Shown: piece after piece, positions 3,934 through 64,000 of the stretch
Numbering within the stretch: the stretch's first letter is position 1
Layout: every line of letters starts with the position of its first letter
NCBI RefSeq assembly: GCF_024298765.1
Contig: NZ_CP101210.1
Direction: 5' to 3' (one strand)
Source: Escherichia coli
GTDB taxonomy: Bacteria; Pseudomonadota; Gammaproteobacteria; Enterobacterales; Enterobacteriaceae
Length of the DNA: 64,000 nucleotides
Notes under the pieces: generated by a model
Told to the model about the DNA's origin: nothing
Seen by the model: the letters and a program-made list of their open reading frames with translations, nothing else
Databases searched by the model: none
Translations under genes and position numbers: made by a program

Positions 3934-4184
3934 GTCGGGATTCCTGTTTTTATACGTCTGGATGTCTAAACTAGCATGAATATTCGCGGGCGCATCCTGA
4001 AGAATTGGCATAAAGCAGAAAATTTTCGCAAATGGCGTGCTGGTGACTTTTTTACTGCGTAAACGCAAGGAAAAGAAAGCAAAGGTACGGCAGTATGCAA
4101 ATAGTAATGAGAACGACTATCAATTCGACGTAGTTTTGATATTATTATGCGCAGATTTTGTGACTTGCGTCCTGGAGATACACA

Positions 4185-4919
4185 GTGGGTAATAATTTAA
4201 TGCAGACGGACCTTTCCGTCTGGGGTATGTATCAGCACGCCGATATTGTCGTTAAGTGCGTGATGATTGGGCTTATTTTGGCCTCCGTAGTCACCTGGGC
4301 AATCTTCTTCAGTAAGAGCGTAGAGTTCTTCAATCAGAAGCGTCGCCTTAAGCGCGAGCAGCAACTGCTGGCTGAAGCGCGTTCCTTAAACCAGGCCAAC
4401 GATATCGCCGCTGATTTTGGTAGCAAAAGCTTAAGCCTGCATTTGCTCAATGAAGCGCAGAATGAGCTGGAACTGTCAGAAGGCAGCGACGATAACGAAG
4501 GTATTAAAGAACGTACCAGCTTCCGTCTGGAGCGTCGGGTCGCCGCAGTAGGTCGTCAAATGGGCCGTGGTAACGGCTATCTGGCAACCATCGGCGCGAT
4601 TTCGCCGTTCGTTGGGCTGTTTGGTACGGTCTGGGGCATCATGAACAGCTTTATTGGTATCGCGCAAACGCAGACTACTAACCTGGCAGTCGTTGCGCCG
4701 GGTATCGCAGAAGCTCTGTTAGCAACGGCAATCGGTCTGGTGGCAGCGATTCCGGCGGTCGTTATCTATAACGTATTCGCGCGTCAGATTGGCGGCTTTA
4801 AAGCGATGCTGGGTGATGTCGCAGCGCAGGTATTGTTGCTGCAAAGCCGTGACCTGGATCTGGAAGCCAGCGCCGCTGCGCATCCGGTTCGTGTCGCACA
4901 AAAATTACGCGCAGGATAA
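4185..4919 (+). CDS. exbB: TonB-system energiser ExbB
   Basis: 244-aa ORF with GTG start, MGNNLMQTDLSVWGMYQ; MotA/TolQ/ExbB family. Confidence 0.9.
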   Translation: MGNNLMQTDLSVWGMYQHADIVVKCVMIGLILASVVTWAIFFSKSVEFFNQKRRLKREQQLLAEARSLNQANDIAADFGSKSLSLHLLNEAQNELELSEGSDDNEGIKERTSFRLERRVAAVGRQMGRGNGYLATIGAISPFVGLFGTVWGIMNSFIGIAQTQTTNLAVVAPGIAEALLATAIGLVAAIPAVVIYNVFARQIGGFKAMLGDVAAQVLLLQSRDLDLEASAAAHPVRVAQKLRAG

Positions 4920-59965: not shown

Positions 59966-60502
59966 ATGTTACGCGATAAATTTATTCACTATTTTCAGCA
60001 ATGGCGTGAACGCCAGTTAAGCCGTGGCGAACACTGGCTGACACAACACCTGGCGGGGCGTTCGCCGCGTGAAAAGGGCATGTTACTGGCAGCGGCGGTG
60101 TTTCTGTTTAGCGCCGGATATTACGTCCTCATCTGGCAGCCTTTGAGCGAACGGATTGAGCAACAGGAGACGATGTTGCAACAGATGGTGGCGATGAACG
60201 CGCGACTGAAGAGCGCCGCGCCGGATATTATTGCGGCGCGAAAATCCGCCACAACAACGCCTGCACAGGTATCGCGGGTCATCAGCGATAGTGCTTCTGC
60301 GCACTCAGTGGTTATCAAGCGGATAGCCGAGCGCGGGGAGAATATTCAGGTCTGGATAGATCCGGTGGTGTTTAATGACCTGCTGAACTGGTTAAAAGCA
60401 CTGGATGAAAAGTATGCGCTGCGGGTGACACAAATTGATGTCAGCGCAGGTGAGAAGCCTGGAATGGTGAATGTGCAGCGGCTGGAATTTGGACGGGGAT
60501 AA
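59966..60502 (+). CDS. gspM: type II secretion system protein M
   Basis: 178 aa; N-terminal TM; last gene of operon. Confidence 0.8.
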   Translation: MLRDKFIHYFQQWRERQLSRGEHWLTQHLAGRSPREKGMLLAAAVFLFSAGYYVLIWQPLSERIEQQETMLQQMVAMNARLKSAAPDIIAARKSATTTPAQVSRVISDSASAHSVVIKRIAERGENIQVWIDPVVFNDLLNWLKALDEKYALRVTQIDVSAGEKPGMVNVQRLEFGRG

Positions 60503-60615
60503 AGTATCAGGAGATTAATATCAATAAAATTACTCTCGTTAACGTGGCGAGAGTAATTCCCCCAGACTTTATAAGCTAATTTTTTTCGTGAAGGTTATTG
60601 TCAGAGCCAAAAGCA

Positions 60616-60645
60616 AAAACCCGCCTTGTGGCGGGTTCTTAAGAA
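60616..60645 (-). terminator. rho-independent terminator (minus strand)
   Basis: cccgcc-ttgt-ggcggg stem-loop; on the minus strand it is followed by tttttgctttt. Confidence 0.6.
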
Positions 60646-60649
60646 TTAG

Positions 60650-60668
60650 TGGTGCCCGGACTCGGAAT
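60650..60668 (-). other. 19-nt tRNA-Phe 3'-end fragment (att-site direct-repeat remnant; island boundary)
   Basis: tggtgcccggactcggaat equals reverse complement of tRNA-Phe 3' end (...ATTCCGAGTCCGGGCACCA); no full tRNA present. Confidence 0.7.
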
Positions 60669-60915
60669 GAAACTGGTTATATAACCAATTGTTTTGTATC
60701 GACTGTTTTATCCTTGTTCTTTTTGAGGCCACCAATGAGGCCCCCATGTGCAATTCGAATTCTTTTGACGCTATAATCCCTCTTTCTTGTGGTTTGTTGT
60801 AATCATTTTGTCTGGTTCGATATGCTGAATCGCGGAATCGAAGTGACAACAAAATACAGAGATTTATAAAATACCTGGCTACCTGTGTTAGGGAGCGTTA
60901 ACGCACAGATTTTGT

Positions 60916-61242
60916 TTATGGCTGCCAGAAATGATCTGATGGTTTGTCGTCTGGCTCTGCAAGTACCCTGTTGATATCCCGGGAACCATGAACGATACGT
61001 TCGATACGAACTTCAGTATCCAGTACCCTGAACAGCAGAAGGTAACGACCATACGAACAACCTCTGATCCCAGCCCCTAACTCGGGTCTTTCTCTGTAGA
61101 GTACTGGCGATTCGGCTATCAACAGACATTGTTGGTAAAGCTCTTCGGTAAAACTGATTGCACGGACAGGATTATCCTGAGCGATCCAGTCACCTATAGC
61201 TTCAAGATCGTGTTCTGCTAATGGTGAAACAGTCAGTTTCAT
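60916..61242 (-). CDS. ParE/RelE-family type II toxin
   Basis: 108 aa; 4-nt overlap with upstream antitoxin gene; ParE-like sequence. Confidence 0.7.
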   Translation of the reverse strand: MKLTVSPLAEHDLEAIGDWIAQDNPVRAISFTEELYQQCLLIAESPVLYRERPELGAGIRGCSYGRYLLLFRVLDTEVRIERIVHGSRDINRVLAEPDDKPSDHFWQP

Positions 61243-61502
61243 ATTGGCTGTTCACCTTCTGCCATCTTTTTGTATTTGTGCGTCAGTCGCCCGAATACCT
61301 CTTCAGCACTTTTACTTTCACCGCTGTTGATGCCTGCGGCCACGGCGCTCTGGAGTGATTCAAGCTTTATCTGCTGTTCCCGTTCTTCCAGAGCACGAAG
61401 TCCGGCACGAATGACTTCACTTGTATTGTTGTACCGACCACTTTCTATTTGTTCGCGGATAAACGTTTCAAAGTAAGGACTGAGGGATACACTGGTAGGC
61501 AT
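61239..61502 (-). CDS. ParD-like type II antitoxin
   Basis: 87 aa; ribbon-helix-helix-like N-terminus; immediately upstream of the toxin. Confidence 0.7.
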   Translation of the reverse strand: MPTSVSLSPYFETFIREQIESGRYNNTSEVIRAGLRALEEREQQIKLESLQSAVAAGINSGESKSAEEVFGRLTHKYKKMAEGEQPI

Positions 61503-61573
61503 GGTTATTTTCTCGCCGATTGATTACTATCAATTAATAATAGTTAATATTCGCGAATTGTAAAATACCTCTT

Positions 61574-62440
61574 TTATGCCTTGCGGCTTTTGTTCACTGT
61601 GCTTGCCAGGGCTTCCGGGTAGTGTCTGGCAATAATATCATTAAGCCTGTCAACCAGCTCTGGTTTCCTGAACGTGATGTGCGCGGAGCCCTTCTTAAAG
61701 TATCTGATGCTGAACATCTCATCTTCATAGTCCTCTTTACCCTGAACAGACTGGATGTGATCATCCAGATGAATGGTGATGTTTTCCCGGTTGTCGGGGA
61801 TCGGTTTGCCGCTGAACAGGTGCAGCATTCTTTCCAGATCGGCAAGTCGATCGGCCTGTTGTCCGGTGATAAGATGAAACCCCCACCGGTCCCACCTCAC
61901 CAGATTGTTGACGATAATTTTACTGCCAAATTTGCAGGGTGAATTGGTTTTGTAATTCCAGCTCAGTCCTCTGAAAACGTTGAGCACCCCTCGCTCAAAC
62001 ACTTCATCTTTGTTCTGGTGCAGTTGTTCAAACGTGCTCAGGATATTTGCTTCGCTGATTTCCGGAAAATTATCGTACTCCAGTGACCGGTACCATGTAT
62101 CACGGGCTTGTGCATCCATTAATGACAGCATCCCTGAACGTTGCATCAGATCACGCCAGATTTCGCGGTCAAGGTTGCGGGTGATGGCTTTCATTGCGGT
62201 TTCCGGTTTTTCCATCAGCCAGCAACCGCAGCGAAAATCCTGTTTCATGGCCCAGTCCAGTGCAGTTTTACCTCCGATGCTTTCCGTCAGCACCGAGATT
62301 TCTGCCAGTTGCCGGATAAGTGTGTCGATTTGCAGCAGCGCACTCTTTCGTACAGCCAGAATGTGGCGGATGCTGGTTGAGCCGATAACGTCCGTATGCC
62401 CGTTGACCACTTCCGGACGGGGGGCTGTGATTTCAGACAT
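61574..62440 (-). CDS. hypothetical protein, 288 aa (island cargo)
   Basis: Long ORF with no conflicting frame; function not recognisable. Confidence 0.55.
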   Translation of the reverse strand: MSEITAPRPEVVNGHTDVIGSTSIRHILAVRKSALLQIDTLIRQLAEISVLTESIGGKTALDWAMKQDFRCGCWLMEKPETAMKAITRNLDREIWRDLMQRSGMLSLMDAQARDTWYRSLEYDNFPEISEANILSTFEQLHQNKDEVFERGVLNVFRGLSWNYKTNSPCKFGSKIIVNNLVRWDRWGFHLITGQQADRLADLERMLHLFSGKPIPDNRENITIHLDDHIQSVQGKEDYEDEMFSIRYFKKGSAHITFRKPELVDRLNDIIARHYPEALASTVNKSRKA

Positions 62441-62524
62441 AATCGATATTCCTTTTTGCAGATAAATGAAAACGCCAGCCCTGTTCAGGCTGGCGTCAGT
62501 GGAATGAAGTCTGGTGAGTAAGAC

Positions 62525-62767
62525 TCACCGGTTCTGTTGCAGAAGCTGCAACTGGCGCAGGATACGGATATCCTCCCTGGCCTGTTCGATACAGGGCAAC
62601 AGTGCTGCCGAATCCGTTCTATCCTCATCGTTGTCAAAGATAATTCCCGATTCGCAGTCGATATTGTCCTGTAGCCACGCAATCAGAATATCCAGTGCGG
62701 TTTCCGTGGTTAATGATTTCATGTTGTTCCTGGTTACCAGTCGAAAGTGGGCAGGTCCGGCAGACAT
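62525..62767 (-). CDS. hypothetical small protein, 80 aa
   Basis: ORF only; partially overlaps the next ORF. Confidence 0.35.
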   Translation of the reverse strand: MSAGPAHFRLVTRNNMKSLTTETALDILIAWLQDNIDCESGIIFDNDEDRTDSAALLPCIEQAREDIRILRQLQLLQQNR

Positions 62768-63225
62768 TCAGCGCTGGCATCCAGATGAATGAGACTGACG
62801 CCATAACGTCGGGTAAGTGTGACAACCAGACGACGGAACGTTTTTGACAGGCCCAGGCGCTTAAGCCGCAGAACCGGGTATGACCACGCATCGGTACGTA
62901 ACAGATATCCGCTACCTGTGAAATGAATCCATTCTGATTCGCCGGTGCCATTCGTCTGATGTGACAGCGAGTACAGCCAGGCGTTGTCCTTTGCCGTGAT
63001 ATGCGCGGTACTGCAGCGTATGCCGGTAAGGGCCGCCGCAGATGATGGCGTGCGCTCTGCTGATGTCCGGTCAGATTCATCAACAACACGAAGGGAGTAA
63101 CCGTTATCGCAGACCACGTTAATCAGTTCAGCGAGAGTAACACCATCGACGTCAACGACAATGCGCCCCATGTTCAGTGCCTGCACGTTAATGCTGTCGG
63201 CTTCCAGCGTCAGGGCCAGTTTCAT
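62734..63225 (-). CDS. hypothetical protein downstream of CbtA-like toxin (YeeW-position gene)
   Basis: 163-aa ORF; start overlaps toxin stop by 4 nt. Confidence 0.5.
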   Translation of the reverse strand: MKLALTLEADSINVQALNMGRIVVDVDGVTLAELINVVCDNGYSLRVVDESDRTSAERTPSSAAALTGIRCSTAHITAKDNAWLYSLSHQTNGTGESEWIHFTGSGYLLRTDAWSYPVLRLKRLGLSKTFRRLVVTLTRRYGVSLIHLDASAECLPDLPTFDW

Positions 63226-63599
63226 TGTTTCGCCCCCGGATGTTTACCCAGGGTAATGTTATTTACCGTTCTGTAATTGTCGCGGGCCATCAGGCCGGTT
63301 GCCCGGCGGGCCCGGAGGATATCAATACTGTTTATTAACTGAGAACGGGTACAGGCGCTGAATCCTGGCTGGTCGGTACGTACCAGTGCGTATTTTTCAA
63401 CGAGAAAGTTCACCGCATCGCACAGTGAAATGCCTGCCTCAATATGCTGCTCAATCACACGTTCATCAGCGAACGGTGTGTCATTCAGTGTGAGGCCGTA
63501 ATGCTGGTCCAACAGTCGGGTGAGCAGTGTCTGCCAGATGGTGACGGGAGACGGGCAGCGCGATGCCTCCCGTACGTGTGTGTCAGGTAATGTTTTCAT
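63222..63599 (-). CDS. CbtA/YeeV-family type IV toxin (cytoskeleton-binding)
   Basis: ATG at 63599 (MKTLP...), 125 aa; near-identical to the CbtA/YkfI/YpjF family as recalled. Confidence 0.8.
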   Translation of the reverse strand: MKTLPDTHVREASRCPSPVTIWQTLLTRLLDQHYGLTLNDTPFADERVIEQHIEAGISLCDAVNFLVEKYALVRTDQPGFSACTRSQLINSIDILRARRATGLMARDNYRTVNNITLGKHPGAKQ

Positions 63600-63645
63600 C
63601 TTAAGTTCTCTGTAACTGGTAGTGCTAAAGGTGAGATATTCGGGG

Positions 63646-64000
63646 TTATGAGGTGGTTGCGGGTGCCAGTGTCGGATAAACAGCCATATAAACGTAACCA
63701 CAGCTGCCGAGGGTGTCGGCTTCGCAGGTCAGCCCTCTGGCATACAGCGTGACGGTATGCTGATGGCGGGGATTCAGTTCACCGCTGGTGAGCATGAGTT
63801 CCAGTTGTTTCATCAGCAGCGGAAAGGCCTGGTCCAGATGATACGCATCCGCGTCGCTAAACTGCCCCCTGATACCGGCGCGGTCGGCAAGGTAATGCAA
63901 CCGGTTACCCTCCTGCACCAGACGTGCCCCGAAACAGGGCGTCACGGTGCAGGGGAGCCCCCACCAGGGGCGGTCGTTGTTGTTGTCGGGATGCGTTGTC
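63646..64000 (-). CDS. CbeA/YeeU-family antitoxin, 3' portion (5' end beyond window end)
   Basis: Frame stays open to the window edge (…DNNNDRPWWGLPCTVTPCFGARL…); matches CbeA/YfjZ family. Confidence 0.75.
   Translation of the reverse strand, partial: TTHPDNNNDRPWWGLPCTVTPCFGARLVQEGNRLHYLADRAGIRGQFSDADAYHLDQAFPLLMKQLELMLTSGELNPRHQHTVTLYARGLTCEADTLGSCGYVYMAVYPTLAPATTS

Follow-up and report, generated by a model that had tools for sequence, protein, structure and literature searches.

Three conserved genes at the end of a tRNA-Phe island in Escherichia coli, with relatives on conjugative plasmids

Our study examined three minus-strand open reading frames (ORFs) near the end of a genomic island in a 64,000-nucleotide stretch of Escherichia coli DNA (contig NZ_CP101210.1 of assembly GCF_024298765.1), referred to below as the window. 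All three were found to be real genes, none of them a chance ORF, and each is already annotated and belongs to a catalogued family (DUF4942, DUF957 and DUF5983); the genes themselves are not new. Our preferred reading, which we hold tentatively and at somewhat less than an even chance, is that the trio would belong to a leading-region-like backbone array that ends the island, and not to its cargo, and would act, by analogy with conjugative plasmids, in plasmid-type establishment, with the DUF4942 protein binding DNA. The identity of the genes, their conservation, their independent translation, the terminal position and the plasmid homologues are firm; the role in establishment and the DNA binding are what we infer.

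The ORF list made from the letters of the window strand bore out the three ORFs of 288, 80 and 163 amino acids (aa) reported in an earlier, sequence-only reading, all ATG-started and on the minus strand, together with the 34-nt overlap (62734–62767) between the two shorter ones. With the start of the middle gene corrected as described below, the genes are:

61574–62440, minus strand: DUF4942 gene, 288 aa, PF13708
62525–62722, minus strand: DUF957-type gene, 65 aa, isoelectric point (pI) 4.2, very acidic; the longest ORF, 62525–62767, has 80 aa
62734–63225, minus strand: DUF5983-family gene, 163 aa, of the YeeW/Aec77/L0008 type; by per-domain pI its N domain is acidic and its C domain basic

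The sequence-only reading could not assign these ORFs, whereas profile search and RefSeq names place each of them in a catalogued family. The 288-aa protein matched Pfam DUF4942 (PF13708) with 233.5 bits against a cut-off of 25, over profile positions 1–190 of 190, and the 163-aa protein passed both of its models, PF25638 (DUF5983_N; 108 bits) and PF19419 (DUF5983; 77.5 bits), with a cut-off of 27. A glyoxalase/bleomycin-resistance (VOC) fold has been claimed for the C domain of DUF5983. No current Pfam model matched the small ORF, even at E values up to 10; its identity to ‘Aec78’ and to proteins that RefSeq calls ‘DUF957 domain-containing protein’ is 92–98 %, and RefSeq DUF957 proteins with 100 % identity also occur. 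Many E. coli chromosomes carry the whole 3.5-kb segment at 99.5 % identity, and on these the Prokaryotic Genome Annotation Pipeline (PGAP) gives the order cbeA-cbtA, then DUF5983 (163 aa), DUF957 (65 aa) and DUF4942 (288 aa), and NZ_CP033635.1 matches the span of the trio at 100 %. The PGAP names on identical sequence are ‘DUF5983 family protein’, ‘DUF957 domain-containing protein’ and ‘DUF4942 domain-containing protein’, and the database names for the trio are Aec77, Aec78 and Aec79. Published island tables list it as L0008/YeeW, L0009 and L0010 of the locus of enterocyte effacement (LEE) island and as orf54–56 of the Shigella resistance locus (SRL) island (PMC6980539). YeeW of the E. coli K-12 island CP4-44, Aec77 and L0008 are of the same Pfam DUF5983 family and occupy the same slot, directly 3′ of a CbtA-family toxin gene. 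As thousands of E. coli genomes carry the same annotation for these genes, little is at stake in the window itself.

Beyond family membership, the searches were negative. There was no PDB match for any of the three proteins, using single sequences and profiles, no PADLOC defence-system match at E values up to 0.1, no NCBIfam match and no Rfam family over 60000–64000. The literature searched reported no function for any of the trio: a search for yeeW, yeeV and yeeU returned no functional study, with author-name noise for yeeW, and PF13708 returned no papers.

The possibility that the ORFs were not conserved, or were disrupted, in related islands had been left standing by the sequence-only reading, and it can be set aside because of the gene order, the low ratios of nonsynonymous to synonymous substitution (dN/dS) and the prevalence in E. 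coli. A scan of genome contigs with DUF5983 as the query gave 21 loci, whose neighbours were mapped by tblastn. The order cbeA-cbtA-DUF5983-DUF957-DUF4942 was kept in Escherichia albertii, Citrobacter, Yersinia, Tenebrionibacter, Yokenella, Trabulsiella and an Enterobacteriaceae metagenome-assembled genome (MAG), and gene order was conserved in loci of at least eight genera. Protein identity to the window in these loci was 56–66 % for DUF5983, 60–74 % for DUF957 and 60–67 % for DUF4942. A Serratia marcescens locus (L021) lacks DUF957, and one of Enterobacter wuhouensis (L026) retains only cbeA, cbtA and a truncated DUF5983. Median dN/dS across 10–16 diverged loci was 0.17 for DUF5983, 0.16 for DUF957 and 0.09 for DUF4942, indicating purifying selection; these codon-aligned Nei–Gojobori ratios are approximate, as dS was about 1.5 and near saturation. 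Of 5426 complete E. coli genomes, 3435 carried at least 80 % of the 1652-bp span, the median being 2 copies and the maximum 12.

Six short contigs in this material (L008, L009, L011, L012, L024 and L025) carry E. coli-type island sequence at 84–96 % identity and are filed as genomes or MAGs of Collinsella, Lachnospiraceae and Arthrobacter; they almost certainly represent binning or assembly contamination of reference genomes. In L028, from a Bacilli MAG, a tblastn match to the DUF5983 C domain (positions 4001–4297, 32 % identity) has no table-11 ORF across it, and may reflect a contig with another genetic code or a spurious match.

The comparison with plasmids is part of the case for the preferred reading. 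Homologues of DUF4942 were found by tblastn on 4889 of 72,556 plasmids, 4003 of them conjugative, mostly at 32–39 % identity and near full length. The window protein aligns with the ygfB product of IncI plasmids over residues 14–288 (95 % of the query) at 38–39 % identity (E about 1e-50), and ygfB itself matches PF13708. The two are thus full-length homologues of similar size (about 280 aa), and each is the last gene of a one-directional array containing antirestriction, DUF932 and DUF905 genes. On IncI plasmids ygfB closes the leading region (ssb, psiB, psiA, ardA ... ygfB), about 650 bp from nikA and the origin of transfer (oriT) and pointing to it, and the orientation and terminal position of the window gene parallel plasmid leading regions. 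They differ in setting, as the window gene is carried by the chromosome, in a tRNA-Phe island whose integrase-distal end it occupies, and follows cbtA/cbeA, DUF5983 and DUF957, whereas the plasmid gene follows ardA, psiB and ssb. In IncL/M plasmids of the pOXA-48 type, DUF4942 shares the leading region with ssb, a JAB/RadC gene and an antirestriction gene of the KlcA type, and it was also found on an IncP-like metagenomic plasmid and in the early region of a phage; phage records hold mainly DUF4942-methyltransferase fusions.

The same pattern extends to the other two families. A 188-aa protein with a DUF5983 C domain lies directly before mobA and the relaxase gene of an IncI-like MOBP plasmid, in the slot that ygfB takes, and homologues of the DUF957 core were found on 1413 plasmids, of which 1292 are conjugative. 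Sharing a slot beside oriT does not make DUF5983 and DUF4942 homologous, since hhalign gave a probability of 0.7 %. In the leading-region enrichment analysis of Samuel et al. (Nature 2024, PMC11541004; Supplementary Table 1), DUF4942 family 24 has 2171 members, a false discovery rate-corrected p of 0, a median ORF index of 1 and T-strand orientation, and a second DUF4942 family (76) has 551 members at index 6. Family 72, linked to DUF5983 by HHpred, has 618 members at index 2, and families 2 (DUF905/YkfF), 3 (DUF932/YafZ) and 9 (KlcA) are leading-region-enriched as well (PMC11541004). The name YdiA for the DUF4942 plasmid family comes from the table of that paper alone. DUF905/YkfF, DUF932/YafZ and KlcA are also the other members of the island array in locus L001. 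All three families of the trio thus recur in the first-entering regions of conjugative plasmids, which offers a testable context, establishment or anti-defence, for widespread genes.

Orphan methylase genes lie a few genes from plasmid homologues of DUF5983 and DUF4942, an N-6 methylase at L045:3527–4357 and a C-5 methylase at L002:5025–6434. In the island, the trio has no methylase nearby.

The far side of DUF4942 was found to contain the following features:

60650–60668, minus strand: att repeat, the island boundary; a 19-nt copy of the tRNA-Phe 3′ end
60724–60746, no strand assigned: tandem TGAGGCC(A/C)CCA repeats, from repeat finding, 60–95 nt inside the att repeat
60916–61502, minus strand: parD-parE type II toxin–antitoxin (TA) pair (parE 60916–61242, parD 61239–61502), from Pfam and NCBIfam, between DUF4942 and the island end
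61564–61537, minus strand: promoter-like site before parD, TTTACA-16-TATTAT, from a promoter scan

The placement of the ORFs in a genomic island is supported by this boundary. Positions 60650–60668 read ATTCCGAGTCCGGGCACCA on the minus strand, which is the last 19 nt of tRNA-Phe; the full tRNA sequence was verified against 5425 genomes. A similar G-rich tandem motif lies 60–100 nt from the att repeat in L014, L015, L017, L019, L021 and L022, and since the same motif precedes att in these sister islands, the tandem repeats are probably arm-type sites for a recombinase, integrase or excisionase. DUF4942 is the last gene in L014, L018, L021 and L022, where it lies 110–240 nt from the tRNA-Phe fragment, and in L017 and L019 the island ends about 130 nt after DUF4942 in a different repeat, which we take to be selC-like. 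Because DUF4942 is terminal, with tandem repeats before att, at differing ends, the array appears to be the backbone of an island family at several integration sites. ParDE, standing between DUF4942 and the island end, is a local insertion. The label of cargo in the sequence-only reading was therefore not upheld: DUF5983 and DUF957 form the conserved tail of the cbeA-cbtA unit, and DUF4942 is the conserved terminal gene of the island family. The tail of a CP4-type island would accordingly seem to be backbone rather than cargo.

A few further features were seen at island ends. A strong terminator-like hairpin (60614–60641) stands immediately beyond the tRNA-Phe fragment, on the yghD side of the island end. 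In locus L014, two successive tRNA-Phe 3′ fragments stand 100–500 nt beyond the DUF4942 stop, and the same terminator-like sequence follows each of them, an arrangement that suggests tandem island remnants or repeated integration. In L015, L021 and L022 the DUF4942 stop is followed within about 200 nt by a conserved ORF of about 60 aa (MVSFSN...) with its own Shine–Dalgarno (SD) sequence; the window lacks this ORF and has parDE in its place.

The island showed no recognisable oriT or relaxase, and comparing the island ends with the IncI and IncL/M oriT regions by blastn-short gave nothing significant. A bolder form of the preferred reading, distinctly improbable in our judgement, holds that the integrase-distal array of CP4-type islands, from DUF905 to DUF4942, would be a working leading region, the excised island being conjugatively mobilised from a cryptic oriT near DUF4942. 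DUF4942, DUF957 and DUF5983 would then be a new early establishment or anti-defence set common to IncI, IncF, IncL/M and IncHI plasmids, and DUF4942 a dead methyltransferase-type recognition module that shields or marks incoming DNA.

The main alternative to a leading-region-like array concerns the other neighbour of the trio, and its features are:

62471–62497, minus strand: terminator-like hairpin of 11 GC-rich pairs with a T-rich tail, between DUF957 and DUF4942
63222–63225, minus strand: ATGA overlap, in which the cbtA stop and the DUF5983 start share bases; putative translational coupling
63222–63599, minus strand: cbtA toxin gene, 125 aa, Pfam CbtA_toxin at 3.8e-63, RefSeq coordinates
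63646–64000, minus strand, running past the window end: cbeA antitoxin gene, Pfam CbeA_antitoxin at 1.7e-50, RefSeq

The sequence-only reading had put the ORFs between two TA modules, and this stands in so far as ParD/ParE lies on one side and CbtA/CbeA on the other; it fails for DUF5983 and DUF957, which are the tail of the cbeA-cbtA unit. They share the transcription unit of the CbtA/CbeA (YeeV/YeeU) type IV TA operon of CP4-type islands. This raises the possibility that both are extra CbtA/CbeA components, serving for instance as second antitoxin, chaperone or regulator, with DUF4942 unrelated to them. In the window, the DUF5983 ATG overlaps the cbtA stop as ATGA (63225–63222), and wherever the 3′ end of cbtA is intact, the match to cbtA stops exactly at the coordinate where DUF5983 begins. 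The terminator-like hairpin does not appear until after DUF957, as would befit a component encoded in the same operon, and it is present in 9 of 9 loci compared, although the spacer around it has diverged; in L015 it shows a two-sided change (GCCAGTC/GACTGGC). DUF957 is also small and acidic, as many antitoxins are, and a large survey of E. coli found DUF5983 constantly downstream of CbtA in every sequence type but ST11 (PMC10790755).

However, co-occurrence with an intact toxin is not obligate. In Trabulsiella odontotermitis cbtA is a pseudogene, frameshifted at L017:3585–4003 and truncated at L018:1205–1616, whereas DUF5983, DUF957 and DUF4942 are intact in both, and for this reason the trio appears to be independent of CbtA. 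The plasmid homologues of the DUF5983 C domain and of DUF957 likewise have no cbtA nearby. The K-12 CbtA/CbeA pairs work with yeeW truncated or absent, which also counts against an additional component. The two defining components of the TA system thus do not include DUF5983 and DUF957, which persist where cbtA has decayed, and we regard the extra-component explanation as unlikely, if still the strongest competitor of a leading-region-like array. Judged from the sequence, there are probably three units: cbeA-cbtA-DUF5983-DUF957, DUF4942, and parDE, the last with a promoter-like site of its own. As the DUF4942 ATG follows the hairpin by only some 30 nt, leaving no room for a promoter, DUF4942 is probably transcribed by read-through of the hairpin.

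The sequence-only reading held that at most one of the two overlapping starts could be right, and this proved correct: the 163-aa start is right and the 80-aa start is wrong. The conserved DUF957 ATG is at 62722, 11 nt after the DUF5983 stop, with an SD-like AGGA at 62728–62731 before it, and gives the 65-aa product found in RefSeq. The product is 65 aa (62525–62722) because the 15 extra codons of the longer ORF are the DUF5983 C-terminus in another frame, and the 34-nt overlap is an artefact of choosing the longest ORF. An ATG followed by xxLTTE is common to 15 of 15 DUF957 loci, and in all 15 an SD-like motif (AGGA, AAGG, AAGGAG or GAGG) lies 5–9 nt before this ATG, the rest of the spacer having diverged.

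A competing explanation is that the small ORF is not independent, either being spurious or frameshifted or forming the frameshift-made C-terminal part of a DUF5983 fusion. AntiFam treats its entry ANF00264 as spurious, and a June 2026 preprint (bioRxiv 10.64898/2026.06.09.728211) argues that ANF00264 is genuine and may arise by programmed frameshifting; according to the preprint, it is fused to or lies just 3′ of DUF5983, beside cbtA/cbeA, with 25 fused UniProt entries. ANF00264 is probably the DUF957 gene, a correspondence drawn from position and names (Aec77, CP4-44). Consistent with such an origin, the 80-aa ORF overlaps DUF5983 in the −1 frame in the window, the frame relation is the same in most loci, no current Pfam model exists, and rare fusions, such as protein P0348 (229 aa) and those counted in the preprint, occur in databases.

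The details of the junction point the other way. The spacer from the DUF5983 stop to DUF957 is 11, 16, 19, 29, 30 or 32 nt across loci, and relative to DUF5983 most loci read DUF957 in frame 2, L009 and L010 in frame 1 and L020 in frame 0, with a stop in the DUF957 frame inside the spacer of L014. Both frames are jointly open over no more than 7 nt in L013–L019 (over L013–L020 they either do not overlap or do so by 7 nt at most), and a reading of the overlap in the window (62734–62767) found no slippery heptamer of the form X XXY YYZ. The SD-like motif precedes the ATG in every locus, and the upstream extension lies in differing frames between variants (P0142 versus P0124). The fused P0348 is a rare indel variant, and the 200-aa P0255 and P0355 are wrong-frame stop-codon read-throughs. 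In its own frame DUF957 has a dN/dS of 0.16, from 94 pairs, and 22 invariant residues. Furthermore, IncHI2 plasmids encode a stand-alone 103-aa homologue, 49 % identical over the conserved core; roughly 500 nt separate it from the preceding gene, and its surroundings lack DUF5983. A frameshift or spurious origin is thus very improbable and is not supported: to judge by these sequence features, DUF957 is a genuine, selected and independently initiated gene. Dropped from Pfam and apparently listed as spurious in AntiFam, it behaves as an ordinary independent gene, and it is present on more than 1400 plasmids.

The DUF4942 protein was predicted with a confident fold that has no match among solved structures. 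The family comprises about 2280 clusters at 50 % identity, and W95, D201, H254 and N267 were invariant in 94 sequences whose mean column identity was 33 %. A few homologues, 460–560 aa long, are extended at the C-terminus by a class-I methyltransferase domain (Pfam MTS, Methyltransf_11 or N6_Mtase), with motif I (EPSAGxG) and motif IV (NPPF) C-terminal to DUF4942, and keep every near-invariant DUF4942 residue. These NPPF amino-methyltransferase fusions, from phages and plasmids (PHROG 6263; P0440, P0505 and P0509), are the BFVD fold matches of the window protein and share the DUF4942 module with it, whereas the methyltransferase domain is theirs only.

That DUF4942 is itself a DNA methyltransferase or restriction methylase might be supposed from source names (‘restriction methylase’ for P0017 and P0073), from the match of the window protein to PHROG 6263 (‘DNA methyltransferase’) and from phage homologues annotated as methylases. 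These names stem from fusions with the methyltransferase domain C-terminal to DUF4942, and they do not apply here because the window protein ends where the methyltransferase would start. PHROG 6263 was aligned only over its positions 81–290 of 548, and the window protein matches PF13708 alone. Pfam searches with the window protein and with 94 stand-alone homologues, the latter at E values up to 1, gave no methyltransferase match, and the homologues showed nothing recurrent beyond PF13708; a kleA_kleC match in 5 of the 94 homologues, at E 0.057 or weaker, was treated as noise. The S-adenosylmethionine-binding motif I and the catalytic motif IV are absent from the window protein and occur only in the C-terminal extension of the long homologues. 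Without the domain, the window protein cannot methylate alone, and a methyltransferase identity is barely credible.

The fusions nevertheless bear on what DUF4942 may do. Their methyltransferase domain is about 190 residues long and is accompanied by no other candidate recognition domain, which suggests that DUF4942 is a putative DNA-binding or target-recognition module. The C-terminal half of the 288-aa protein has a pI of 9.1 and the family median is 7.65, values that argue against a DNA mimic. An enzymatic role, for instance as a metal-dependent nuclease or hydrolase using the invariant D201, H254 and N267, would be compatible with DNA binding. In the predicted model, strands 243–247 and 253–257 and helix 260–273 form a beta-beta-alpha element holding H254 and N267; this order, and the retention of W95, D201, H254 and N267 in the fusions, would fit such an enzyme. 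However, no structural match to a His-Me finger or any other nuclease was found, and we consider this quite unlikely. As a large family with a fold that lacks a solved match, and as the front module of phage methyltransferases, DUF4942 is a reasonable target for structure determination and DNA-binding work.

Finally, some database variants of the trio call for comment. A 151-aa ORF starting with GTG (62634–63089, minus strand) spans DUF5983 and DUF957 in the third frame and was dismissed as a shadow ORF; its translation reappears as an N-terminal extension or C-terminal read-through in P0142, P0129, P0255 and P0355. Internal duplications of DUF5983 or DUF957 segments were seen in P0241 (214 aa) and P0121 (114 aa) and are likely to be assembly artefacts from multi-copy islands.

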